Shown piece by piece: positions 1 through 9,233 of a stretch of 9,233 bases of DNA; positions within the stretch are counted from its first letter, which is position 1, and each line of letters opens with the position of its first letter. The stretch comes from Escherichia coli (GTDB lineage Bacteria; Pseudomonadota; Gammaproteobacteria; Enterobacterales; Enterobacteriaceae). The position numbers were made by a program, and so were the translations under genes. The stretch lies in NCBI RefSeq assembly GCF_003334255.1, contig NZ_QOWU01000090.1, one strand, 5' to 3'. The notes under the pieces are model-generated. The model saw only the letters and a program-made list of their open reading frames with translations, was not told where the DNA came from and searched no databases.

Positions 1-76
1 AGTTATCGTGAGAGTAATTCATCGGCACGTTAAATCATATCAGGCGTAATACCACAACCCTTAAGTTAGCGCTTAT

Positions 77-96
77 GGGGGGAAGTCCCCCTTTTT
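77..96 (+). terminator. Rho-independent terminator closing a + strand unit lying left of the window
   Basis: G-run 77..82, loop AAGT, C-run 87..91 (5-bp all-GC stem), followed directly by TTTTT 92..96. Confidence 0.5.
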
Positions 97-106
97 AACG
101 TCATTT

Positions 107-154
107 TATGCAGGGAATGTGTAGTTCTACACAGATTCTATGCAGTATCGGTAT
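107..154. repeat. Compound repeat: TATGCAG (107..113), perfect 16-bp palindrome TGTGTAG-TT-CTACACA (118..133), TATGCAG (139..145), TATCGGTAT (146..154)
   Basis: Read directly from the sequence. Further same-orientation TATGCAG(G) copies at 219..225 and 469..475. A given 7-mer is expected less than once per strand in 9.2 kb. Confidence 0.7.
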
Positions 155-437
155 AGTCCCTTTTTATTCTAACTTATTGAAATATATAAAGAATCTGCAA
201 AGCCTCTTTTCAGGGAGCTATGCAGGGTGTTAGTCGTCCCTCTCCAGACACTACATATAGTGCTATATACAGGGCTATATAACGATATATAGATGTTTGG
301 TCACATGGTGTAACTATCAAGAAACTTAATAGTTTCCTATGTGAAAGTTATTTCTGAGGGTGGGTAAGTGCTCAGGAGATTTCATGAGGATAATTCTTAT
401 CCGAATCATCACGTAGAACACGCTTAAGCACAGATAC

Positions 438-461
438 AAAAAAGCCCCCATGAAGGAGGCT
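438..461 (-). terminator. Rho-independent terminator of the recombinase gene
   Basis: On the - strand: AGCCUCC-UUCAU-GGGGGCU (7 bp including one G.U) followed by UUUUUU (A-run 438..443 on +). The hairpin begins 25 nt after the stop codon at 487..489. Confidence 0.65.
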
Positions 462-486
462 ATGAATCTATGCAGGTGATGAGAAA

Positions 487-1053
487 TTATTCAGCTTTAA
501 TACGCTGTACAGTTGACTTGGCAACGTTGAATTGAGCGGCTACTTTAGCGATTGAACTACCAGCAGCAAGAGCAGCTTTAATACCTTCTCTGTCAACCGC
601 TTTACCGTTACCCCTTCCAACTACACGACCAGCAGCTTTAGCAGCTTCATAACCTTCTCTTTGACGCTCAAGCATCATTTTACGTTCAGCTTCAGCCACT
701 GCTGAAAAGATTGTGAGAATCATCTTAGACGTGGGGTTATCGTCACCAGTTATCAGACCTTCTTTGTGAAAGTGAACCTTGATACCTTTCTGTGAAAGTT
801 TATCCACCAGCGTTAATACATCCACGGTAGAGCGCCCTAAACGTGACAGGTCGTGTACATGGATAGTGTCACCTTCACGAACATAATCGAGCATAGCCTT
901 TAGTTGTGGACGGTCTGTATTCTTCCCAGATGCTTTATCAGTAAATACCTTATCCAGTACGACCCCTTCAAGTTGACGGTCTGTAATCTGCTGGATTGAT
1001 GAAACTCGAACATAACCAATGTTAGCCATAATATACTCATTTGCCTTACTCAT
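487..1053 (-). CDS. Small serine recombinase (resolvase/invertase family)
   Basis: 188-aa ORF. MANIGYVRVSSIQQ matches the catalytic-serine N-terminus of the family (compare Hin MATIGYIRVSTIDQ). Also DRPQL, LSRLGRS, an E-helix AEAERKMMLERQREG, and a C-terminal Gly/Arg arm plus HTH (IAKVAAQFNVAKSTVQRI). The family-typical start is the internal ATG at 1029 (M-A-N-I-G-Y); 1053 is the longest-ORF start. Confidence 0.9.
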   Translation of the reverse strand: MSKANEYIMANIGYVRVSSIQQITDRQLEGVVLDKVFTDKASGKNTDRPQLKAMLDYVREGDTIHVHDLSRLGRSTVDVLTLVDKLSQKGIKVHFHKEGLITGDDNPTSKMILTIFSAVAEAERKMMLERQREGYEAAKAAGRVVGRGNGKAVDREGIKAALAAGSSIAKVAAQFNVAKSTVQRIKAE

Positions 1054-1064
1054 TTGATGGATTG

Positions 1065-1094
1065 AGTATAACGTACCGATAAAGTGTTTTACAA
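1065..1094 (-). promoter_or_regulatory. Candidate sigma70 promoter of the recombinase gene
   Basis: - strand TTGTAA (1094..1089), 18 nt, TATACT (1070..1065). The predicted start near 1058 leaves only about 5 nt before ATG 1053, which favours ATG 1029 as the real start. Confidence 0.35.
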
Positions 1095-1156
1095 GGCTAA
1101 TCGGTATGGTTTTTACAGGGGGTTAGCTATACCTTTTTAGTATGCTATATCGGTAT
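1074..1156. repeat. ATCGGTAT motif cluster upstream of the recombinase gene (candidate res-like binding sites)
   Basis: TACCGATA 1074..1081 (inverted copy), ATCGGTAT 1100..1107, TATCGGTAT 1148..1156. The first two form the dyad TACCGAT-N19-ATCGGTA. A fourth copy lies at 146..154 on the other side of the gene. An 8-mer is expected about 0.3 times in this window. Confidence 0.55.
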
Positions 1157-1339
1157 GCCTAAGAGATGGAGATGCCTTTACAGCAACTCACATAGAAAGT
1201 CAATAGATATTTGGCTTTTTTGCAAAGGGGGTCACATAGCTGGTGTGACGGGTACTTAGCAGGTATAGACCTGTGATAGATATTTTCGAAGATTCGGGGA
1301 AGATGAGATTCAAAGAGGGCTAGTCATTTTTTATAAAAA

Positions 1340-1477
1340 TTTTCAGACTCTGAAAAGTTACTGTACAGATTTTATACAGATATCTTTAAAGTATCTGTAA
1401 AGACTTTTAAGATAAGAGATAGATATCCCAGAAAGGATATCCGTTTAGAAAACCTGTTAAGTATCTCTTAAAAGAGA
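1340..1477. promoter_or_regulatory. Cluster of four unrelated dyad symmetries in the recombinase/methyltransferase divergent intergenic region
   Basis: TTTTCAG-ACT-CTGAAAA 1340..1356; TACAGATA-N9-TATCTGTA 1375..1399; GATATCC-N6-GGATATC 1422..1441; TCTCTT-AA-AAGAGA 1464..1477. All arms are perfect. Confidence 0.5.
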
Positions 1478-1521
1478 GTAAACCTTGTCAATAGTGATTG
1501 CAATAAAAATTTTTATTTCTT

Positions 1522-2184
1522 ATGTCAATTGAGCATATTTTAATCGGGAAACATCATGGGGGTTCTGATTACTGGAGAACTCCATTTCTTATATTCCGCA
1601 ATTTGCACCGTGAGTTTAGTTTCAGTCTGGATGGTGCTGCAACTGAGCATGACACGCTGTTACCACGATTCACCAATGATATTCACAATCAGTCATGGGA
1701 TGGTGAACGGGTGTTCTGTAACCCACCATACAGCGACACTAAAACATTCCTCCTAAAAGCCGCTGAAGCGGATTTAGCGGTATTCCTGATACCGTACCGA
1801 CCCCACACCACATACTGGCTTAAGCACCTCTTCACAAACCCGCTTTGCCATGAAATCCGTATTCTTCATCGTGCAGTTAAATACCTTCCACCAGCAGGGC
1901 ATAACGGGCTTGCTATTAGGTCACCGTTTGCAAGTGCAATTGTCATCTTTAAAACTGAGCCACGCAGACATGAAATTACGCAGATGATTTGCTGTGCTGA
2001 TACATTGCTACCGTTAACCATCATTAACAGAGGAGGCTTAAGAGGAAGACCCACCATTTACCCACCTGAGACGCTCGACAGCTTCATAAAGCTATACAGG
2101 CAAGGAAAACCCATTAAGTGCATTGCAGATGCTCTCAGAATGCCTCTGAGCACGTCATACAGGATTGCGCAAAGGTTGAGCTAA
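1522..2184 (+). CDS. Phage Dam-type DNA N6-adenine methyltransferase with a C-terminal resolvase-type HTH domain
   Basis: 220-aa ORF. DYWRTP...FSLDGAA...W-x3-VFCNPPYSD follows the phage Dam family layout (PF05869-like), with catalytic NPPY at nt 1720..1731. From GRP (nt 2044) the last ~46 aa read as a Hin/resolvase-type DNA-binding domain (GRPTIY...IKCIADALRMPLSTSYRI). There is no SD before ATG 1522, so the start is uncertain. Confidence 0.8.
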   Translation: MSIEHILIGKHHGGSDYWRTPFLIFRNLHREFSFSLDGAATEHDTLLPRFTNDIHNQSWDGERVFCNPPYSDTKTFLLKAAEADLAVFLIPYRPHTTYWLKHLFTNPLCHEIRILHRAVKYLPPAGHNGLAIRSPFASAIVIFKTEPRRHEITQMICCADTLLPLTIINRGGLRGRPTIYPPETLDSFIKLYRQGKPIKCIADALRMPLSTSYRIAQRLS

Positions 2185-2288
2185 AATTCTCATAAATATG
2201 GCCATTTACAAGACAGGTGATTTAGATATTAAGAAGTATCCCTGTGAACAATAAATGACCAATCAGTAATTATTCTGTGAAATAATTG

Positions 2289-2317
2289 TTGCAATCTATA
2301 ATCACACATGATATAGT
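2289..2317 (+). promoter_or_regulatory. Sigma70 promoter of the replication operon
   Basis: TTGCAA (2289..2294), 17 nt, TATAGT (2312..2317). It gives a leader of about 225 nt before the rep-like ATG at 2551. Confidence 0.55.
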
Positions 2318-2378
2318 TTCATAGTGGGCTGATAAAAAAGTTCATGTCTTGAAGTGGTAACACTTGGGGAGGTGTCAG

Positions 2379-2414
2379 ATGATTGACGTCAACAAGACCT
2401 CTCATTCAGGGTAA
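2379..2414 (+). CDS. Possible 11-codon leader peptide (MIDVNKTSHSG) in the rep leader
   Basis: Strong SD GGGGAGG (2366..2372), 6-nt spacer, ATG 2379, stop TAA 2412..2414. No other support. Confidence 0.25.
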   Translation: MIDVNKTSHSG

Positions 2415-2499
2415 TTACCTCAGCGTTTTAATCATCGTACTGTTTCAGGCATGGACTTCTTTATCAGTCCATCAATCCCCCAGATATTTTAATCACACA

Positions 2500-2530
2500 G
2501 GCTAATCGGTTTTATCCGGTTGGCCTTTTC
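2500..2530 (+). terminator. Attenuator-like intrinsic terminator just upstream of the rep RBS
   Basis: GGCTAATCGG (2500..2509), loop TTTTAT, CCGGTTGGCC (2516..2525): 10 bp including two G.U pairs, then TTTT (2526..2529). It ends 7 nt before the SD GAGG 2537..2540. Confidence 0.45.
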
Positions 2531-2550
2531 ACGTATGAGGTAATTTATGA

Positions 2551-3489
2551 ATGTCTAAATATAACCCAAATCAGTTTTATAAATTTGATGTGCGAATCTC
2601 TCAGCTTTCAGAAGAAATTAACGCAGCAGCAAGATTAATTTATATGGTCATGGTTCATAGCTGTGATTTCTATGAAGAGAAGTACAAAGCATATTCACCA
2701 AGTATTGACCATCTAGCTTATATGGCTGGTGTTTCAAAGAGAACGGCAATCAGAGCTATTGAGACACTTGAGAAACACGGTTTAATTCAGGTGCAAAAGA
2801 ATCAGGGTCGTCAAAGCACTTATCGTGTATTCACACTGGATGATAAGCCGGAATTACTTGTAAGACCTACATCACAGGAAGTTGCAGCCTCAGTAAGACA
2901 AAATGACACCACTACCAGTGACAAAATGTCATCAGTACCAGTGACAAAATGTCATGGGGGTAGTGACAAAATGTCACCCGTGTTAGATAAGTTATTAGAT
3001 AAAACATTAGATAATAATATTATAGATAAGAGTAAAGATACTGAACTTGATGTTGGTATCAATGAAGATGATTTTCTTTCTTTGGATGAATTAAATGATT
3101 TTCTCTCTATGAATGAATCTGACCTTGATAGTGAAGCTACTAAAGAGACCTCTAAAACATCTGACTTAGAGGAAGATAAAATCTCTGATGTGAATGAAGT
3201 TAGTGACCAGCAAGATACACCTTGCCGCCTCGAATCAACTGATGATGAATTACCGGATGTTGACCTTGATGATGAAGAAGACCCTGAAGAGGAATTGAAA
3301 CGTGAACAGCGTAAAGCAGAAATTAAAGAAAGATTCAGAAAGGCAAAGCTAAAGAACAGGATTGATGAACTTGATGACTTTGATGATAGTGACGATGATT
3401 TTACTTTTACACCAAAAAAGAAAACTCACACCGAGCCAAAGAAAGAAAAAGTTAAAGTCAGACGTGTTTATGCTGGAGGAATGTTTTAA
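2551..3489 (+). CDS. Replication-initiator-like protein: N-terminal winged-HTH (HTH_36-like) and a long acidic C-terminal half
   Basis: 312-aa ORF. ARLIYMVMVHSCD...YSPSIDHLAYMAGVSKRTAIRAIETLEKHGLIQV...STYRV is the HTH pattern seen in phage/plasmid initiators. Iterons and an AT-rich tract lie inside the gene (2892..3029). SD GAGG lies 10 nt upstream. The gene is translationally coupled to the next ORF. Confidence 0.7.
   Translation: MSKYNPNQFYKFDVRISQLSEEINAAARLIYMVMVHSCDFYEEKYKAYSPSIDHLAYMAGVSKRTAIRAIETLEKHGLIQVQKNQGRQSTYRVFTLDDKPELLVRPTSQEVAASVRQNDTTTSDKMSSVPVTKCHGGSDKMSPVLDKLLDKTLDNNIIDKSKDTELDVGINEDDFLSLDELNDFLSMNESDLDSEATKETSKTSDLEEDKISDVNEVSDQQDTPCRLESTDDELPDVDLDDEEDPEEELKREQRKAEIKERFRKAKLKNRIDELDDFDDSDDDFTFTPKKKTHTEPKKEKVKVRRVYAGGMF
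2892..2976. repeat. Four phased iterons (candidate origin of replication inside the rep gene)
   Basis: AGTGACAAAATGTCA at 2917..2931, 2940..2954 and 2962..2976. Copies 1 and 2 are identical over 20 bp (TACCAGTGACAAAATGTCAT). A degenerate copy AGTAAGACAAAATGACA lies at 2892..2908. Spacing is 23/23/22 bp. Each copy contains the dyad TGACA-AAA-TGTCA. Confidence 0.75.
2983..3029. repeat. AT-rich tract with 12-bp-phased TTAGATAA repeats (candidate DNA-unwinding element)
   Basis: TTAGATAA at 2983..2990, 2995..3002 and 3007..3014, plus ATAGATAA at 3022..3029. It lies immediately 3' of the iterons and is encoded as LDKLLDKTLDNNIIDK. Confidence 0.55.
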
Positions 3490-3779
3490 TGAAAGAATAT
3501 AACGGTGAAAAACGATACAAAGATTATCTATTAAGGCGCTACAGCATTTCTCGTGAAGGTCATCTTCTGAAAGATACTCATGGGGAGGTTTACCGGATTC
3601 GACCGAAGAAGGAAGGAAAGAATTATTTCTTTTTTGATGGTGTGACAGATTTAAAGATTGACGCTTTGAGGTTTGCAGTGATGTATCATTTTGATGTCTG
3701 GGATTCAGTCCACCAGCTACGATTAAAAGACGGTGACCCCGGTAATCTGAAGGCCACCAATATCATCACAAAACGTTAG
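3489..3779 (+). CDS. Hypothetical 96-aa protein, weak resemblance to HNH_3/NUMOD4-type phage endonuclease scaffolds
   Basis: ATG overlaps the rep stop (TAATG). YSISREGHLLKD...GKNYFFFDG...H-x4-KDGDPGNLKATN loosely follows the Y-x-V-S-x-x-G ... H-x-DGD-x-x-N-x-x-x-NL pattern, but the key Asn/His positions look degenerate. Confidence 0.5.
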   Translation: MKEYNGEKRYKDYLLRRYSISREGHLLKDTHGEVYRIRPKKEGKNYFFFDGVTDLKIDALRFAVMYHFDVWDSVHQLRLKDGDPGNLKATNIITKR

Positions 3780-3961
3780 TTTGTTTTACCATCATCAATC
3801 GTAATTGTGATTTCATATTTGAAAAGCTTAATGCTGAAATTGAATCGTGTACTTTTGGCGATAATCATTTTTAAAAGCTGATACACCAGAAGCACCAGAA
3901 ACACAAAGCAACCTAAGCTTGCGAATCTGTGAGATTCAGCAATTGTTTCAAGAAAGCCCAT
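3776..3961 (-). CDS. Small single-pass membrane protein (61 aa)
   Basis: Good SD AAGGGG 5 nt before the ATG (3961..3959). Hydrophobic segment LGCFVFLVLLVYQLL. It has its own promoter (4012..4040). It converges on, and overlaps by 4 nt, the 3489..3779 gene. Confidence 0.5.
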   Translation of the reverse strand: MGFLETIAESHRFASLGCFVFLVLLVYQLLKMIIAKSTRFNFSIKLFKYEITITIDDGKTN

Positions 3962-4011
3962 TAATTCCCCTTATTTATCAAAGGGAATGACCTGTATCAG
4001 CCCCTATAACC

Positions 4012-4040
4012 ATAATATCATGTAAATGAGATGTTGACAA
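4012..4040 (-). promoter_or_regulatory. Sigma70 promoter for the 61-aa membrane protein
   Basis: - strand TTGTCA (4040..4035), 17 nt, TATTAT (4017..4012). Its -35 overlaps the -35 of the divergent + promoter. Confidence 0.55.
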
Positions 4041-4062
4041 TATGTTAAATAAATGTTAAGAT
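4034..4062 (+). promoter_or_regulatory. Near-consensus sigma70 promoter of the 4099..5374 operon
   Basis: TTGACA (4034..4039), 17 nt, TAAGAT (4057..4062). It is overlaid by three tandem 11-bp repeats: ATGTTGACAAT, ATGTTAAATAA, ATGTTAAGATT (4031..4063). Confidence 0.65.
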
Positions 4063-4098
4063 TGTAGTATGAGTAAGAGATTTAAGGAGATTTTTACA

Positions 4099-4389
4099 AT
4101 GACTCACACAGTTACGCGCCTTTTGCCAGAGGCATTTGAACGACTGGCAGCAATCAAAGCCAAATATCCCGATATGAAGCACACAGCGCTTGTTGCAGAG
4201 GTTTTAAAAGAGCCGGTAGACTTGACCCCTTTCGATAACGTTAAGGGCGTTGCAGAGGGTTCTAAGGCCATCAGAATCACAACGGGCCAACTGGAACTAC
4301 TCAAAGCACAGTCCGCAGTAGCAGGTTGCTCAATGATTCAGGTCTTAAGCGCAAAGGTTCATCAATTAGCGGATAAGCTGGGGGTTTAA
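4099..4389 (+). CDS. Small DNA-binding-like protein with two tandem ribbon-helix-helix-like segments
   Basis: SD AAGGAG (4083..4088), 10 nt, ATG 4099. The ORF track starts at ATG 4069, which coincides with the predicted transcription start. TVTRLLPEAFERLAAIKAKYPDMKHTALVAEVL and AIRITTGQLELLKAQSAVAGCSMIQVLSAKV each fit a strand-helix-helix pattern. This was judged by eye only. Confidence 0.6.
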   Translation: MTHTVTRLLPEAFERLAAIKAKYPDMKHTALVAEVLKEPVDLTPFDNVKGVAEGSKAIRITTGQLELLKAQSAVAGCSMIQVLSAKVHQLADKLGV

Positions 4390-4814
4390 TGCTATGTACA
4401 TTTGATTATCATGCGTTTTATCGACATAGAGGTCATCTTGTCCGTGAGAATAACGGAACATGGAAAGATTTAACTCGTAATGCTGAACCCTTCACACACC
4501 AGCAATTAAAATCCCGCTTCTCCAGATGGAAGAATGCACCAGCAGATACTGGTGATTTTGAGATTATCCATACCTTCGATTATGCCTCAGAAGATGACCT
4601 TCACGATGCAATTAAGCTGATTGAAGACTTCAATACCTCAGAAAATGTGGATGGTGACAAATATAAATCCCGTGGTAACCGCTATAACCGTGATGATATC
4701 ACTCAGGCCATAAATGCTGGTCAATCTCAGCGATACATTACAGAAAAATATGGTATTTCACGGAGACAGTATTTCTACGTTAAATCATTGATTAATAAAG
4801 ACAATTCAAAATAA
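4389..4814 (+). CDS. Hypothetical 141-aa protein with a C-terminal resolvase-type HTH
   Basis: ATG overlaps the upstream stop (TAATG). The C-terminus DDITQAINAGQSQRYITEKYGISRRQYFYV resembles HTH_7. The N-terminal ~100 aa are unrecognised. Confidence 0.6.
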   Translation: MLCTFDYHAFYRHRGHLVRENNGTWKDLTRNAEPFTHQQLKSRFSRWKNAPADTGDFEIIHTFDYASEDDLHDAIKLIEDFNTSENVDGDKYKSRGNRYNRDDITQAINAGQSQRYITEKYGISRRQYFYVKSLINKDNSK

Positions 4815-4820
4815 CCATCT

Positions 4821-4920
4821 CAGTAACGGTAGAATGCACTTTACAGGCAGAGTTGCACCTTAATTTGATAAATTACCTTACCAGCCAGTGCAACTCCCTC
4901 TGTAACCCGCATGGTTACTG
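4821..4920. other. 100-nt imperfect long hairpin / cruciform-capable element
   Basis: Nested arms: CAGTAAC 4821..4827 / GTTACTG 4914..4920; ATGC 4834..4837 / GCAT 4909..4912; TTACAG 4841..4846 / CTGTAA 4900..4905; GAGTTGCAC 4850..4858 / GTGCAACTC 4888..4896. That is 26 bp in total, with a 29-nt AT-rich apical loop. Confidence 0.6.
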
Positions 4921-4973
4921 GCCTCAGAATGGCTATTTTAAGAGGTCTGAGATGTGTTTTAGAGGAATTTAAA

Positions 4974-5297
4974 ATGAGCAATTACGAATTACAGATTTTC
5001 GTTGATAACGACACCGCTATGATGATTCAGGCTTTCAGTGATTCCGGTGTATCAATTGATTTTGACAGGCTGTTAAAGCTGATGGCTGATAATGCAGAAA
5101 ACATCTCTGACTTTATTCAGTCGGTGGAGTTTAACGAGCCTCGAATGATGCTACCAATTACCGACTCAAACATGAAAAGATTGGTTATCGAGCAAACGAA
5201 CAAACACAGTATTTCCCCAGAGCAATTTTTGAAAGGTGCTGTGACAATCCTGCACAGCGATAATATTCTGGTGACGGATTCTATGAGGGTTCACTAA
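4974..5297 (+). CDS. Hypothetical 107-aa protein
   Basis: SD GAGGA (4963..4967), 6 nt, ATG 4974. The longer ORF start at 4911 lies inside the hairpin element and has no RBS. The C-terminal MLPITDSNMKRLVIEQTNKHSISPEQFLKGAV is weakly RHH-like. Confidence 0.6.
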   Translation: MSNYELQIFVDNDTAMMIQAFSDSGVSIDFDRLLKLMADNAENISDFIQSVEFNEPRMMLPITDSNMKRLVIEQTNKHSISPEQFLKGAVTILHSDNILVTDSMRVH

Positions 5298-5374
5298 TGG
5301 GATTGATAATTGCTTGGACAGCTTTAGGTTTATTTGTTGGTTGCTGGGTGGGCAACACAGTAAATAAGAATTGA
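5297..5374 (+). CDS. Possible 25-aa hydrophobic peptide (MGLIIAWTALGLFVGCWVGNTVNKN)
   Basis: ATG overlaps the stop of the preceding gene (TAATG, the same coupling as two other junctions in this window). One clean transmembrane-length hydrophobic stretch with a basic/polar tail. It is too short for statistical support. Confidence 0.3.
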   Translation: MGLIIAWTALGLFVGCWVGNTVNKN

Positions 5375-5406
5375 TGTTACCAATCTGTTAAAAAGCTGTT
5401 GACAAA
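5374..5406. promoter_or_regulatory. Three tandem 11-bp TGTT repeats ending on the -35 box
   Basis: ATGTTACCAAT 5374..5384, CTGTTAAAAAG 5385..5395, CTGTTGACAAA 5396..5406. The same unit and phase occur at 4031..4063. Confidence 0.55.
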
Positions 5407-5427
5407 TAACCTTAAGCATGGCATAAT
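5399..5427 (+). promoter_or_regulatory. Near-consensus sigma70 promoter with no adjacent conventional gene
   Basis: TTGACA (5399..5404), 17 nt, CATAAT (5422..5427). A second -10-like TATATA follows at 5430..5435. Confidence 0.65.
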
Positions 5428-5433
5428 TGTATA

Positions 5434-5652
5434 TATGAGGATAGTCTTCTATCCGAAGTCTATAGGAAGAGCAATTTTTCCTAAAATCATATTTTCAATA
5501 ATCCGATGGATGGATATTCTGAGTTGGAAAGGTGCAATGCTTTTCGTCATGGCCTTTCAGTTTAGTCTGAGAGGTCATCTCAAAAAGTGCTTAATCATTC
5601 ATTATTGAACCCTTACAGCTTTGCCCTAACTCATGATTAGGGCGTTTTCTTT
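5434..5652 (+). ncRNA. Candidate ~0.2-kb structured short transcript (promoter to first terminator); alternative reading is a leaderless 57-codon ORF at 5435..5608
   Basis: It is bounded by the promoter above and terminator T1. Hairpins: GGATAG-TCTT-CTATCC 5439..5454; TAGGAA-N9-TTCCTA 5463..5483; GAAAGG/CCTTTC 5527..5558; TGAGA-GGTCA-TCTCA 5568..5582. No SD-preceded ORF is present. An ATG at 5435 sits at the predicted +1 and opens MRIVFYPKSIGRAIFPK... (rich in ATA/AGA codons). Confidence 0.35.
5623..5652 (+). terminator. Intrinsic terminator T1
   Basis: GCCCTAA (5623..5629), 7-nt loop, TTAGGGC (5637..5643), then GTTTTCTTT. Confidence 0.65.
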
Positions 5653-5721
5653 AAGAGTTTTGAAACAGAGCTTTTAAAGAAAGTTTTCCTGAAACTTCGT
5701 TAACGTTATAAGCAAACCTTC

Positions 5722-5757
5722 AAAGCCCTTCACAGATTATGTTTAGGGCTTTTCTTA
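5722..5757 (+). terminator. Intrinsic terminator T2 (3' half nearly duplicates T1)
   Basis: AAAGCCCT (5722..5729), 15-nt loop, AGGGCTTT (5745..5752), within the T-rich run TTTTCTT (5750..5756). Confidence 0.55.
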
Positions 5758-5842
5758 ATAGAGCATCTTTAATAAATCGTTAAGTCATCTTCTAAGTGTA
5801 TTGGCGTTGAAGGTGCTCTATTAAGAAATAACCACACTTAGA
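5754..5842 (+). promoter_or_regulatory. Leader with two interleaved inverted repeats reaching the RBS of the 5854 gene
   Basis: CTTAATAGAGCA 5754..5765 / TGCTCTATTAAG 5814..5825 (12 bp perfect). TCTAAGTGT 5791..5799 / ACACTTAGA 5834..5842 (9 bp perfect); its 3' arm overlaps the start of the SD GAGGA 5841..5845. Confidence 0.45.
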
Positions 5843-5853
5843 GGAAAAAAATA

Positions 5854-6564
5854 ATGACAAACGATATTTACATTAATGGCAAAGTGATTGATAGCTTCGG
5901 TGACTGGTCACCACAGACTGAACATCCAGCTATCGCTATTCAGCGCAAAGAGCACGATGCGAGAATTGCACTTGAGCAATCGCTAAAGATGACACCAAAG
6001 GAAATTACCTTTGTGGCTCCTGAACCTCAAGAGATGCCCGATATTGGCAAAACTGAAGCATTATTTAATCTTGAGCGCGAATATTACCCACAGTTAAAAG
6101 AACAGCGCCTTAGATTAGATGACGCTTACAGCAAAGTTACCTTGATGCAATCAGCTATTGAGCCGTCAGAATTTGAGATTCAGGATGAATTGTCACAGAA
6201 ACCATTTGTCTATTACCAATACGAAGACAATGATGGTTTTGGTACTTTTCCAGAAAACATCACAGGCGTGATTAGTAGTCTTCCTGATGGATATCGAATT
6301 GTGAAGATGGTTAAAGCTTCAAGAGGTGCTGGTCAGTTTATTTACATGACCAATAAGAGCGATGAAGAACTCCGTGAAATTGCCAGACAGAACATCTTGG
6401 CATCACGTAACAAGCAACTTGAAAATGTTAAGTTGTATCTCTCAAGAGAGCTTCAGGCTATGAAAGAGCTTGTTAGTGAATATGAGTCGCAGAAGAAGAT
6501 TGCTATGCAAGCCGATATTGAGCAGCTTACGAAGATTTCTCAGAAGTATAGCAAAGCGATTTAA
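5854..6564 (+). CDS. Hypothetical 236-aa protein with a coiled-coil-like C-terminus
   Basis: SD GAGGA followed by an 8-nt spacer before the ATG. Long ORF with even, gene-like composition. The C-terminal ~70 aa are K/E/Q/L-rich (NKQLENVKLYLSRELQAMKELVSEYESQKKIAMQADIEQL). No family was recognised. Confidence 0.7.
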   Translation: MTNDIYINGKVIDSFGDWSPQTEHPAIAIQRKEHDARIALEQSLKMTPKEITFVAPEPQEMPDIGKTEALFNLEREYYPQLKEQRLRLDDAYSKVTLMQSAIEPSEFEIQDELSQKPFVYYQYEDNDGFGTFPENITGVISSLPDGYRIVKMVKASRGAGQFIYMTNKSDEELREIARQNILASRNKQLENVKLYLSRELQAMKELVSEYESQKKIAMQADIEQLTKISQKYSKAI

Positions 6565-6580
6565 TTTAAGTGAGGTGAGA

Positions 6581-6796
6581 ATGATTGATTTGCAACAGCG
6601 TTATGAAACTATTAAGTCGGCTTGTGAAAACTTAAAGTTACAAACCAAGCCAGCCTTAAGAATTAAAACCAAACATCAAATTATCACCTCACACAAACCA
6701 AAAACACGCAAGATTCCAAAGTGGTGTATTGACCGTATTCCTTCTGATGCTCAAATCATAGGTGAAACGGAATTACATTATCTTGTCCGACATTAA
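6581..6796 (+). CDS. Hypothetical 71-aa basic protein
   Basis: SD GAGGTGAG directly upstream of ATG 6581. The ORF track extends to 6470, but that extension overlaps the previous gene and lacks an RBS. Confidence 0.5.
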   Translation: MIDLQQRYETIKSACENLKLQTKPALRIKTKHQIITSHKPKTRKIPKWCIDRIPSDAQIIGETELHYLVRH

Positions 6797-6823
6797 AAAA
6801 GAATTGGTTGGGTAAAAATCAAC

Positions 6824-6866
6824 GGGAGAGATTATCGAGTGATATCGGTAGTTTCTCCCTTTTTTG
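6824..6866 (+). terminator. Intrinsic terminator after the 5854..6796 gene pair
   Basis: GGGAGA (6824..6829) pairs with TCTCCC (6854..6859). A short inner CGA/TCG pairing is possible. A TTTTTT run follows at 6860..6865. Confidence 0.5.
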
Positions 6867-6872
6867 TATGTG

Positions 6873-6915
6873 TGCTACGTGAAATCTTCTGAACAGATAT
6901 ACCCACCAAAAATTA
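6873..6915 (+). repeat. 43-bp direct repeat, copy A (promoter-like module upstream of the tape-measure gene)
   Basis: TGCTACGTGAAATCTTCTGAACAGATATACCCACCAAAAATTA. It is 36/43 identical to copy B at 9112..9154, and 25/27 over the first 27 nt. It contains TGAACA-17-TTATTT. GCTACGT 6874..6880 is inverted at ACGTAGC 6922..6928. Confidence 0.7.
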
Positions 6916-6956
6916 TTTTTTACGTAGCTCACGCTTAAAGAGGTGAAAAAATATGA

Positions 6957-9023
6957 ATGGCACAATTTAAAGTTGATGATTTTCTGATTGAGCTAGGTTT
7001 TAACTCTCAGAGGGTTTTAAAAGGTCTGGAAAAAGCCGAGAAACAAACGATGCAGGTAGCATCACGAATTGAGAAGCGATTGAATAAAGCTTTTAAAGTT
7101 AACCCTACGCCTTTAAATGATTCTCTCAAGGTCATGGAAAGAAATGTCGATAAAACTGTTTCCAAGATTGAGCAGCGTCTTAAAAACACTAAAGCGTTTA
7201 AGATTAAAACGGAAATTGAGGATACTTTAAAGCCACTTAGACAACCGAGACAGCCACGAATTAGCGGAAGCAGAGCAATTACAGCAGCGCATAGCGTGAA
7301 TATGAGCAAGCTTCGTGACTTTAATCCTATGCTTGAGAAGTATTTTAAAAGCCAGTATTACAGCTTAAGCAGTAAATCCAAGACACTTGGAAACGAAGCT
7401 TTTAATCGTGAGTTAGCAAAATTAAATCAATCTCTTCGTGAAACACTTTCTAAGTTTAACAAGACCACCAGCAAAAATAATCACAGTGAAAATGCTTCGA
7501 ATGGTCTGGATGTATTAGCTACGAGTGCAATCAAAGCAGGTACAGCCATTTATAGTTTTCAGACAGCCTTAGAAGCTTACAGGCGGATTATGGAGGTTGG
7601 TCTGAAAAAAGAAGCATCACAACGAGCGGCACAATTCGTTTTAGGTGATGAAGGTGCTAAACGAGCTACAGAATTTGTTAAGAATCTTGCTGATAGTAGT
7701 GGTGTAGACCAGATTGAAACATTAAGCAGTTTTGCTAAGTTTTCCGCTGGTGCTGGTGATATGAATGCAGACCAGAAAGAATCCTTATTTTCTAATGTGA
7801 TTGGTACATCCAGATTAATGGGGCTAAGCACCGATGAAATTAACGGGATTTTAAAAGCTTTCGAGCAGATGGCATCTAAAGGAAAGATTCAGGCTGAAGA
7901 GCTACGCGGTCAATTAGGTGACAGAATGGCAGGTGCTTTTCAGTTATTTGCCAGAAGTCTTGGGATGACTACGGAAGAATTAGACAAGGCTATGAAAGAC
8001 GGTAAGGTTCTTTCTAAAGATGTTCTCCCTAAAGTATCCGCTGAAATGGGAAAGATGATTGATAAAGCGGGAGGATGGGAAAAGATTATTAACTCTACTC
8101 AGACGCAGTTAGGCCGCTTAAGTAATTCATGGAATAATAATTTGGCCTTAATGTTCGATGGTTCACAGGAAGGTTTAACAGACTTTACAAGGTCACTGAC
8201 TAATTTACTTAATTCACTGGGTGGTCAATCTAAAAATCTTGGTGAACATTTTGGCGACTTGATGAAAAGCATGTCAAACGGTATTGATGATTTAACCACG
8301 ATTAGCTACCGAGTGCAGGGATTCTTTGACAGAGTGACCCTTGCTTACAGAGAATTAAATGACACTCAAAAAGCTGTAGCTGATGGTATCGCAAATGGCC
8401 TGTTAAGTGCATTAAAGGGACTTGCTGGTATTGTCGCTGTAAGGTCTGGTATTGGTGCTGTAGGTGGTATCTGGAACTTAATTAGGGCTATTTCCACGCT
8501 TGGGAATGTAGCAAATACAGCAGCAGGAAGAATTAATTCACGTTCTGGTGGTGTTGAAAGTGGAAAAAGTAGGCTATCTGTAGCTGATGCAATTACCAGA
8601 GTAATGATTGTCGGTATGACAACTGATGTGATTAATGCCATTGTCAAACCGTTCTATGAACGTCAGATGAGTAAGTCAGATAATCCGATTGATAAAGTTG
8701 TAAGGTCAAAGGTGGAACCCACAGACCAGGCATTAACTGGTGACATGAACTCTTTAGCCGCTGTTTTATGGGCTATGGTTCATGGCAAATCAAAAGATGT
8801 TCCACAGTTTTCACCTGAAGCATTAAATAATCTAAAAGGTCGAGTGGAAACATTCACACAAGATTTAAAGGTTATCAAGCCGTCAGTAAATATTCAGCCT
8901 CAGACAATCAATATCACAACTCAGACGGTACTTGATGGAAAGGTTATTGATGAAAGAACCACATCGCATATTAATCGTATGCAGGAAGATACCTTGATTA
9001 GCTCAGCTTACCCAGAGGAATAA
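6957..9023 (+). CDS. Phage tail length tape-measure protein
   Basis: 688-aa ORF. The core ...LMGLSTDEINGILKAFEQMASKGKIQAEELRGQLGDRMAGAFQLFARSLGMTTEELDKAMKDGKVLSKDVLPKV... is the conserved tape-measure block (TIGR02675-like). The N-terminal third is K/E-rich and helical. Gly/Ala/Ile-rich hydrophobic segments (GIANGLLSALKGLAGIVAVRSGIGAVGGIW) are typical of the family. SD GAGGTG lies at 6940..6945. Confidence 0.88.
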   Translation: MAQFKVDDFLIELGFNSQRVLKGLEKAEKQTMQVASRIEKRLNKAFKVNPTPLNDSLKVMERNVDKTVSKIEQRLKNTKAFKIKTEIEDTLKPLRQPRQPRISGSRAITAAHSVNMSKLRDFNPMLEKYFKSQYYSLSSKSKTLGNEAFNRELAKLNQSLRETLSKFNKTTSKNNHSENASNGLDVLATSAIKAGTAIYSFQTALEAYRRIMEVGLKKEASQRAAQFVLGDEGAKRATEFVKNLADSSGVDQIETLSSFAKFSAGAGDMNADQKESLFSNVIGTSRLMGLSTDEINGILKAFEQMASKGKIQAEELRGQLGDRMAGAFQLFARSLGMTTEELDKAMKDGKVLSKDVLPKVSAEMGKMIDKAGGWEKIINSTQTQLGRLSNSWNNNLALMFDGSQEGLTDFTRSLTNLLNSLGGQSKNLGEHFGDLMKSMSNGIDDLTTISYRVQGFFDRVTLAYRELNDTQKAVADGIANGLLSALKGLAGIVAVRSGIGAVGGIWNLIRAISTLGNVANTAAGRINSRSGGVESGKSRLSVADAITRVMIVGMTTDVINAIVKPFYERQMSKSDNPIDKVVRSKVEPTDQALTGDMNSLAAVLWAMVHGKSKDVPQFSPEALNNLKGRVETFTQDLKVIKPSVNIQPQTINITTQTVLDGKVIDERTTSHINRMQEDTLISSAYPEE

Positions 9024-9111
9024 ACAATGTTAGAGCTACTAATATTTATTGCCACACATGGCAATCTATTAATCTTTATCTAGTATGACGATTCAACTAT
9101 GAATAGTCGAA

Positions 9112-9154
9112 TGCTACGTGATTTCTTCTGAACAGATACCAACATCAAAAATTA
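9112..9154 (+). repeat. 43-bp direct repeat, copy B
   Basis: TGCTACGTGATTTCTTCTGAACAGATACCAACATCAAAAATTA. It is followed after 2 bp by the IS end. Confidence 0.7.
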
Positions 9155-9156
9155 GA

Positions 9157-9233
9157 TGAACCGCCCCGGGTTTCCTGGAGAGTGTTTTATCTGTGAACTC
9201 AGGCTGCCAGATCATTGTTTCCGATGGAAGCAT
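9157..9233 (-). mobile_element. Right end (IRR plus end of orfB) of an IS629/IS1203-like IS3-family insertion sequence, continuing beyond the window
   Basis: From 9157 the sequence reads TGAACCGCCCCGGGTTTCCTGGAGAGTGTTTTATCTGTGAACTCAGGCTGCCAGATCATTGTTTCCGATGGAAGCAT. From memory this is the reverse complement of the IS629-type right end (TG...CA termini, IR TGAACCGCCCCGGG). G+C jumps abruptly relative to the flanking DNA. Confidence 0.85.
9199..9233 (-). CDS. IS3-family transposase OrfB, C-terminal fragment (truncated by the window edge)
   Basis: The reverse-strand frame reads ...ASIGNNDLAA then stop (tca 9199..9201 on +), matching my recollection of the IS629 OrfB C-terminus (...YYASIGNDDLAA). 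Confidence 0.7.
   Translation of the reverse strand, partial: ASIGNNDLAA

Follow-up and report, generated by a model that had tools for sequence, protein, structure and literature searches.

A phage Dam-type adenine methylase joined to a serine-recombinase-type DNA-binding module in a GATC-free island of Escherichia coli

Why would a small DNA methylase end in the DNA-binding module of a serine recombinase, and what could such a module do for the enzyme? This question is raised by an open reading frame (ORF) of E. coli at positions 1522..2184 (plus strand) of a 9,233-nt stretch of DNA from contig NZ_QOWU01000090.1 (assembly GCF_003334255.1), hereafter called the window. The ORF is complete including its stop codon and encodes 220 amino acids (aa); in RefSeq, homologues with 88-94% identity to the protein bear the label 'DNA N-6-adenine-methyltransferase'. 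A preliminary description had read the gene as a phage Dam-type methyltransferase with a Hin/resolvase-type C-terminus. In this study, we analyzed both parts of the protein, their conservation, the DNA upstream of the gene, and the mobile island that carries it. The two-part reading was borne out by Pfam, PHROG and PADLOC for the methylase, and by HTH_7, profiles of PDB entries and fold comparisons for the C-terminus, as detailed below.

The catalytic core, a PF05869 (phage Dam-type) N6-adenine methylase domain, was recognized by Pfam, PHROG and PADLOC at aa 15-143 (1564..1950, plus strand). The Pfam model Dam (PF05869) matched aa 15-115 with 56.6 bits, thereby passing its gathering threshold of 28.1 (E 3.4e-15), PHROG 111 'DNA methyltransferase' matched aa 15-151 (E 1.2e-25), and aa 15-143 covered positions 11-139 of the 140-position PADLOC orphan-MTase (oMTase) model. 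Both hallmarks of the family, i.e. the N-terminal segment W-x-T-P / F-x-x-D-x-A-A and the (N/D)PP(Y/F) motif, are present, and in an alignment of 50 family sequences the residues W18, T20, P21, D37, N67, P68, and P69 were near-invariant. Direct translation placed the catalytic motif IV, NPPY (aa 67-70), at 1720..1731 (plus strand; AACCCACCATAC), in agreement with the position given for it before. In the fold search, the methylase domain showed distant similarity to M.TaqI and to HsdM-type Rossmann methylases. With tblastn, the M.Phi93DAM locus of Lactococcus phage phi93 was found to share 32% identity with the protein over aa 15-168. The NCBIfam equivalog model TIGR01712 (phage_N6A_met) aligned with aa 15-83 only and reached 41.3 bits, short of its cutoff of 97.05 bits; family membership can therefore be assigned, but GATC specificity cannot be transferred to the fusion protein.

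Two further activities were also looked for. The Resolvase catalytic domain with its active-site serine (PF00239) was not found in the fusion protein by Pfam, which detected it in the recombinase encoded next to it with an E-value of 4.5e-37. Pfam, PHROGs and PADLOC revealed no restriction-enzyme family among the eight neighboring ORFs, a search that novel nucleases could escape, and to this extent the enzyme is an orphan, as had been stated from the sequence. A 96-aa ORF at 3489-3779 with a faint HNH-like tail was considered as an HNH nuclease and rejected, as it gave no significant match.

Behind the methylase core, AlphaFold places a beta-hairpin with strands at aa 153-157 and 164-170, which together with a linker makes up aa 151-174 (EITQMICCADTLLPLTIINRGGLR; 1972..2043, plus strand). 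The remainder, aa 175-220 (2044..2181, plus strand), consists of a GRP minor-groove arm and a three-helix helix-turn-helix (HTH) domain, as assigned by HTH_7, PDB profiles and fold matches. The GRP residues themselves (aa 175-177) are encoded by GGAAGACCC at 2044..2052, where they had been noticed earlier. When the whole protein was scored, the Pfam model HTH_7 (PF02796, resolvase HTH; aa 175-215) reached 21.2 bits and remained below its cutoff of 23.8; with the C-terminal 70 or 50 aa alone, the scores of 24.2-25.5 bits were barely above this cutoff, the last 50 aa giving 25.5 bits (E 1.5e-5) and an alignment starting at model position 1, i.e. at the G-R-P arm. Precomputed Pfam tables assign PF02796 to some alleles only. 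When the C-terminal 80 aa of nine fusion homologues were combined into a profile, the PDB entries of Sin/Bin3 (2r0q_C, residues 142-195; E 2.3e-5) and gamma-delta resolvase (1gdt, residues 136-180; E 2-3e-3) were matched; Tn3 resolvase was matched as well, and Hin weakly.

The full-length AlphaFold2 model (50-sequence alignment; mean pLDDT 90.4, pTM 0.84) contains three C-terminal helices, predicted at aa 182-193, 198-204, and 209-219. Searched against PDB and BFVD, this model was matched in its methylase domain only. For a model of the isolated C-terminal 82 aa, the top two PDB folds were both Sin (probability 1.00), and Tn3 and gamma-delta resolvase ranked within the first 13, mixed with further small HTH folds; the E-values were weak, as expected for a domain of 45 aa. 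Thus, in neither the segment-wise profile searches nor the fold comparison of the isolated domain was the C-terminus assigned to the methylase fold. As judged from its sequence, the protein combines an orphan adenine methylase of the PF05869 family with a C-terminal resolvase/Hin-type arm and HTH.

The origin of this HTH is less clear-cut. It had been proposed that domains were shuffled within the element, with similar HTHs in the neighboring recombinase and in a 141-aa protein (4389..4814). BLASTP detected no similarity of the methylase HTH to either of these two proteins, and for the 141-aa protein hhalign gave a probability of just 32%. The methylase HTH did align with the DNA-binding domain (residues 144-183) of a different small serine recombinase, encoded in sister islands, at 33% identity (E 4e-4, BLASTP). 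Shuffling within the element is weakly supported.

Within its family, the architecture stands apart. When 1.84 billion cluster representatives were searched exhaustively with HMMER, 2417 family members were obtained. Most of the best 150 are 130-190 aa long with alignments confined to aa 15 to ~150, and approximately eight representatives among these 150 (P0121-P0126, P0131, and the fragment P0160) align through aa 219. Counted at 50% identity, about eight clusters carry the fusion, in each case as a single ORF. Wherever a source is named, it belongs to the Enterobacterales (E. coli, Shigella, Pluralibacter gergoviae, Erwinia typographi, Franconibacter helveticus, and Raoultella planticola). 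All fusion members have the pattern C-A-D-T...L.L...G...G-R-P...D...R-I..R-L in common, and sequence comparison found its CADT motif in all fusion clusters; NPPY or NPPF and the FxxD(G/A)AA segment are also retained across these clusters, down to 36% identity. In other long PF05869 proteins, the extra part is a second methylase domain or an unassigned extension instead. No relatives were found in one-genome-per-species contigs or in IMG/VR viral contigs, and in the fold search no BFVD protein was matched beyond the methylase domain. Some database entries hold both Pfam labels under names that say only 'DNA N-6-adenine-methyltransferase', and our literature searches returned no account of a PF05869 domain combined with a recombinase HTH. 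The survey of sequences thereby indicates that the fusion is genuine and rare.

Selection acts unevenly along the protein. Among 118 E. coli-type alleles, mean entropy was 0.32 in the catalytic domain (aa 15-150), 0.044 in the hairpin and linker (aa 151-174), and 0.166 in the HTH (aa 175-220), and the mean pN/pS values of 8 alleles were 0.29 (aa 1-150), 0.06, and 0.17, respectively. The hairpin is the most tightly constrained segment by both measures, the recognition helix of the HTH is very strongly conserved, and, in these alleles, the C-terminal module of hairpin and HTH is more constrained than the catalytic domain. For the latter, a pN/pS of 0.29 and the preserved motifs indicate that purifying selection still operates. 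In the HTH-coding part, pS was unusually low (0.05; 8 alleles). One allele (L010) is a natural chimera of a variant-B catalytic domain and a variant-A HTH, with the junction within the HTH-coding part. Both the low pS and the invariance of the upstream DNA described below could result from recent recombination instead of selection.

The window represents a variant of an island of ~11.5 kb, which sits between yciI and tonB with its insertion point at the tonB start codon. Of 5426 complete E. coli genomes, 569 contain matches to parts of it, and NZ_CP071711 is one example in which the island is intact. In this island, the small serine recombinase gene is followed by the methylase-HTH gene, a gene for a replication-initiator-like HTH_36 protein, several genes of unknown function, and then genes for a tape measure protein, a Dit-like baseplate protein, and a large serine recombinase. 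In the window, IS fragments (1-79 and 9146-9233) take the place of both island ends, and the island breaks off after the tape measure gene. Literature searches on the yciI-tonB island and on tail-gene satellites found no description. The small serine recombinase (188 aa; 487..1053, minus strand), which carries the Pfam Resolvase domain mentioned above and HTH_7, is encoded divergently from the methylase gene and lies in a swappable cassette: positions 351-1205 of the window are non-homologous to the sister island, and the recombinase has only ~35-36% identity to the other island recombinases compared.

The position of the methylase-HTH gene is largely maintained. In four of five contexts, it is the first gene of the rightward operon of an integrative island and lies opposite a gene for a small recombinase. 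A minus-strand small recombinase gene, a spacer of 470-830 bp and the methylase-HTH gene heading the rightward genes are shared by the window, L014, L013, and L004. The same architecture, with a methylase of 62% identity, occupies another chromosomal site in a Pluralibacter-like contig, which argues for a coherent mobile unit and against random prophage debris. Tyrosine recombinases serve as both integrase and small divergent recombinase in the Raoultella-like and Erwinia islands, one of which contains a capsid gene, and in both a 0.8-kb spacer precedes the methylase-HTH gene; this gene heads the rightward genes in the Raoultella-like island, and the Erwinia contig stops just past it. In Franconibacter, a large serine recombinase is encoded nearby, and the gene is located 29 bp behind an fljA-like repressor gene, itself accompanied by a flagellin gene. 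It has no operator region of its own there, so that autoregulation cannot be universal.

In the window, the gene is preceded by a dyad-rich, near-invariant region (1330..1521), which we consider a candidate promoter/operator. According to an alignment of eight alleles, only ~10 columns vary in the last 200 bp before the gene, while the coding sequence and the more distal upstream DNA of the same alleles show ~11% variation. Upstream dyads had been announced for 1340..1477, and they are present at 1337..1442. The first, AAATTTTCAGA-C-TCTGAAAAGTT (1337..1359; inverted repeat I14), has one variable column inside in the eight alleles. It is followed at 1375..1399 by a perfect 8-bp inverted repeat with an A/T-rich center, TACAGATA-N9-TATCTGTA, in which two of the eight alleles have one substitution each, at or beside the inner end of the left arm; its geometry resembles that of a recombinase-type dimer site. 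The dyad AGATATCC-CAGAAA-GGATATCC (1421..1442) is invariant in all eight alleles.

Further downstream, CTGTTAAGTA (1454..1463, plus strand) is one copy of a YTNTTAAG-type motif that recurs upstream of the gene in divergent islands. TTAAG/CTTAA was observed three times in the upstream DNA of the window (~1 expected) and 7-9 times in that of L009, L010, and L014 (1.0-1.4 expected). For the variant-B and Pluralibacter-like islands, the upstream DNA is unalignable, with TTAAG/CTTAA enriched five- to eight-fold just upstream of TTGTCA. This -35-like hexamer (1485..1490, plus strand), noticed by inspection of the sequence, is kept in all island variants and is a candidate promoter element. A consensus promoter scan called no promoter ahead of the methylase-HTH gene, a Shine-Dalgarno sequence is absent ahead of its ATG at 1522, and an Rfam scan across the window gave no match. 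Upstream motifs of the YTNTTAAG type also occur in the island variant L007, where the stretch examined contains no annotated methylase gene. Taken by their pattern, the dyads and TTAAG repeats fit an operator array, with the fused HTH as the obvious candidate binder; the Rep-like HTH_36 protein or the 141-aa protein, which are DNA-binding and conserved in the island, could also bind these motifs.

Two other roles for upstream elements were considered. The dyad at 1361-1402 was suspected of being a hybrid attachment site for the large serine recombinase, since the sister loci L006 and L007 lose homology at ~1378; comparison with the empty K-12 site ruled this out. One island end coincides with the tonB start codon, the other lies ~1.25 kb leftward of this dyad, and the repeat at 1375..1399 is therefore not an attachment site. 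GATATC, which occurs in three copies within 63 bp in the window, was rejected as a target of methylation or binding, as it was not seen upstream of the gene in the variant-B or Pluralibacter-like (L014) islands.

From these observations, we arrive at a bifunctional enzyme-regulator as the best explanation, held with slightly less than even confidence: an active orphan adenine methylase whose HTH binds sites in front of its own gene and controls the early rightward operon. The N-terminal domain would carry out SAM-dependent N6-adenine methylation of DNA without a restriction partner. The beta-hairpin would couple it to the serine-recombinase-type module, of which the GRP arm is predicted to enter the minor groove and the three-helix HTH the major groove, so that the module could serve as a sequence-specific anchor for the enzyme. 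As candidate anchors, the conserved dyads and repeats directly upstream are the likeliest, and through them the fusion protein may act as an autoregulator and as an early regulator of the rightward operon of the island. The constraint on the C-terminus, the invariant and dyad-rich upstream DNA and the conserved position at the operon head are compatible with autoregulation or site tethering. That the enzyme is active, that it binds DNA, which sites it occupies and how this affects regulation are inferences from these features of protein and island.

What the enzyme might methylate is a separate matter, on which the base composition of the island bears. Between positions 80 and 9145 of the window, GATC does not occur (41 expected). 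It is likewise absent from the E. coli sister island (50 expected), with 73 copies versus 77.5 expected and 43 versus 53.6 in the chromosomal flanks of the latter, and from positions 7966-19541 of the Pluralibacter-like island (~37 expected). CCWGG is depleted in three island copies, with observed/expected values of 1/10.7, 0/10.5, and 4/13.7 (both strands counted). None of the other methylase-HTH islands examined showed GATC depletion; consequently, the purge is a property of the E. coli/Pluralibacter-like island family and not of the gene. One replicon known to lack GATC is that of phage phiX174, where this has been connected with evasion of methyl-directed mismatch repair (PMC5014478). The island, ~11 kb in length, is GATC-free in a Dam+ host and nevertheless bears a gene of the Dam family.

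The main rival explanation, which we regard as rather unlikely, takes the HTH as a targeting module that docks the small catalytic domain, so that adenines would be methylated exclusively at HTH sites, in their vicinity, or within a longer composite motif. The protein would then be nature's equivalent of tethered-Dam (DamID-type) fusions, and the mark could govern how the island, or a helper phage, is recombined, replicated or transcribed. A GATC activity would find no substrate on its own island and would duplicate host Dam, which favors an altered or directed specificity, or a target elsewhere. The PF05869 core comprises only ~140 aa and is fused to varied modules elsewhere, suggesting that it tolerates accessory domains; the pTM of the full-length model hints at a fixed arrangement of both domains, the joining hairpin is the best-conserved segment, and the gene is consistently linked to site-specific recombinases. 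Against this, the characterized PF05869 homologue M.Phi93DAM writes G6mATC, i.e. methylates a defined site, without any HTH (PMC4190342), and an additional recognition domain is in principle unnecessary. Moreover, no candidate target motif was found conserved across the island variants. Targeting and the autoregulation favored above are not exclusive and can both hold.

Considerably less probable is a standard orphan methylase of the anti-restriction or Dam-like kind, whose C-terminal domain provides only general DNA affinity or processivity as a non-specific clamp, comparable to the C-terminal domain of CcrM, and plays no site-specific or regulatory part. RefSeq and PADLOC classify the protein as a plain orphan methylase, and phage PF05869 enzymes protect against GATC-cutting enzymes (PMC4190342). 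This island, however, has no GATC to protect, and E. coli already possesses Dam. In addition, GRP-armed HTH_7-type domains read a specific sequence in every recombinase structure matched, and the very strong conservation of the recognition helix would be unexpected for a non-specific clamp.

Similarly improbable is a protein that works mainly as a DNA-binding regulator, be it as repressor, activator or recombination directionality factor of the large serine recombinase, with a methylase domain that is decaying or repurposed for a structural or sensing role. A pN/pS about five times that of the hairpin in the catalytic domain would agree with this, as would the large serine recombinase genes that accompany the fusion gene in islands of E. 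coli, of Franconibacter, and of the Pluralibacter-like type, and the finding that Pfam and PHROGs revealed no other obvious repressor in the island. Yet the catalytic domain is under purifying selection, its motifs persist among the most divergent fusion clusters, and the Erwinia-like and Raoultella-like islands have a tyrosine-recombinase integrase, so that the protein is not generally tied to serine integrases as specific partners. Finally, the tethered methylase might form a self-contained, site-directed epigenetic switch, in which the recombinase-derived HTH keeps the catalytic domain at a few defined sites, a local mark written there sets the on/off state, excision or replication of the satellite-like island, and the purge of the host methylation motifs GATC and CCWGG leaves only the directed mark, or none, to be read, a scenario to which we give little credence.

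Methylases fused to DNA-binding regulators are already known; a minimal phage Dam core with a serine-recombinase HTH was not found described in the literature searched. If the HTH directs the enzyme, the protein would offer a naturally occurring example on which to study targeted adenine methylation and, at ~220 aa, a compact scaffold for engineering. If it autoregulates, the principle of SsoII would extend to orphan adenine methylases of phage-related islands. Furthermore, a Dam-family gene on a GATC-free island poses the question of the substrate of its methylase.

Among known systems, the phage 'Dam' enzymes of PF05869, such as M.Phi93DAM, share the homologous core, the NPPY motif, the lack of a restriction partner, and the location on a mobile element. 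T1 Dam, VT2/933W Dam, and HP1 Dam are further phage 'Dam' N6-adenine methylases. Typical PF05869 members have 140-190 aa and end where the hairpin of the fusion protein starts, whereas the latter adds this hairpin and the recombinase-type HTH. The small serine recombinases Sin, gamma-delta, Tn3, and Hin likewise have a G-R-P arm followed by three helices; here, in contrast, the HTH is attached to a methylase, without the catalytic domain and the E-helix of serine recombinases, and the sequence and fold comparisons gave no indication of dimerization or synapsis by the fusion protein.

CcrM, an adenine methylase, has a non-specific C-terminal DNA-binding domain. ParB-HTH-methylase fusions are encoded in phage ParB-terminase loci (PMC4738411). 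Adenine methylases frequently gain accessory DNA-binding domains, a general principle that these fusions and CcrM share with our protein; they belong to other methylase groups and differ in binding folds and genomic settings. Kinship with the non-specific methylases Hia5 and Hin1523 was set aside, as these are larger (hia5 gene ~0.85 kb) and have DPPY and FxGxG motifs (PMC3299994).

The closest functional analogues for the proposed autoregulation are the SsoII-type methylases, which also combine a DNA methylase and a small DNA-binding HTH region acting on transcription in one polypeptide. Relatives of this type are the EcoRII, MspI, and Ecl18kI methylases. In M.SsoII, a 71-aa region separate from the methylase domain regulates transcription (PMC3978073). 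SsoII-type enzymes are C5-cytosine methylases of restriction-modification systems, with an N-terminal regulatory region and control over a nuclease gene, whereas the fusion protein belongs to an N6-adenine family, has its recombinase-type HTH at the C-terminus and came without a detectable nuclease. The fusion protein is not a member of the SsoII type but may work in a similar way.

The window belongs to an 11.5-kb integrative island, for which the start codon of tonB is the insertion point. On this island (whole window; Escherichia coli sister island L001, 14904-26432; Pluralibacter-like island L014, 8604-19308), genes for a replication-initiator-like protein, a tape measure protein, a Dit-like protein and a large serine recombinase are present, but no capsid, terminase or lysis genes could be recognized. 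L014 8604-19308 has the identical layout in another genus at a different insertion site. Because the layout recurs in this way, a satellite-like mobile element with tail genes is suggested. A literature search for the island returned no description of it. At both ends of the window (1-79 and 9146-9233), matches to IS elements or IS-associated sequence (IS3/IS629-like) were found; this truncated island copy thus ends behind the tape measure gene, and it contains neither the Dit-like gene nor the large recombinase.

A cassette carrying a small serine recombinase (351-1205) is replaced in the sister islands, where a different recombinase gene (35% identical) occupies this position on the opposite strand, and homology between the window and the sister islands restarts at 1206. 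The motif TACCGATA is present in the window in four exact copies (146, 1074, 1148, and 6843). Two of them stand just upstream of the small serine recombinase gene, with a further copy bearing one mismatch (TACCGATT, about 1101-1108) between them. These copies are possible recombinase sites. The adjoining segment 1206-1378 is common to many E. coli genomes, which then diverge inside the TATACA/GATATC inverted repeat of the methylase upstream region (window about 1378; positions 7173 and 7172 in the sister E. coli loci L006 and L007, respectively). Sequences beyond this point include a degraded island and also a locus with lambdoid-type phage genes. The point at about 1378 is a recurrent mosaic junction within the regulatory region.

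The ATG of the methylase gene at 1522 is not preceded by a Shine-Dalgarno sequence (window 1485-1524), and a conserved −35-like TTGTCA is located only about 32 bp upstream of it. Since TTGTCA lies so near to an ATG without a Shine-Dalgarno sequence, the mRNA of the window variant may, judged from sequence, be leaderless or poorly translated. The variant-B and L014 alleles start with GTG, with GAGGG ahead of it. A natural chimeric allele (L010, 3157-3825) combines catalytic domain and hairpin of variant-B with the HTH of variant-A, the crossover falling within the HTH-coding part. A 25-nt inverted repeat (2325-2349/2447-2471; 84% complementary, arms 97 nt apart), situated in the 366 bp that separate the methylase gene from the replication-initiator-like gene, may serve as an origin or regulatory element. 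In the HTH_36/replication-initiator-like protein of 312 aa (2551-3489), the C-terminal half is long and extremely acidic, with abundant D/E repeats.

In Franconibacter helveticus (L011, 7777-13718), the methylase-HTH gene follows a flagellin gene and an fljA-like phase-1 flagellin repressor gene at a distance of 29 bp, with an IS1 and a large serine recombinase nearby. This arrangement is similar to a flagellar phase-variation islet.

Motif counts revealed no GATC in window 80-9145 (41 expected), in L001 14904-26432 (50 expected) and in L014 about 7967-19540 (about 37 expected), while GATC frequency is normal in the chromosomal flanks. The sole GATC of the window (9210) lies inside an IS-derived end. 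In the further methylase-HTH islands L004, L011 and L013, GATC is not depleted. The Dcm/EcoRII site CCWGG shows depletion as well (observed/expected on both strands: window 80-9145, 1/10.7; L001 island, 0/10.5; L014 island, 4/13.7). Therefore, both host methylation motifs are avoided by the island, as they likewise are by some virulent coliphages.
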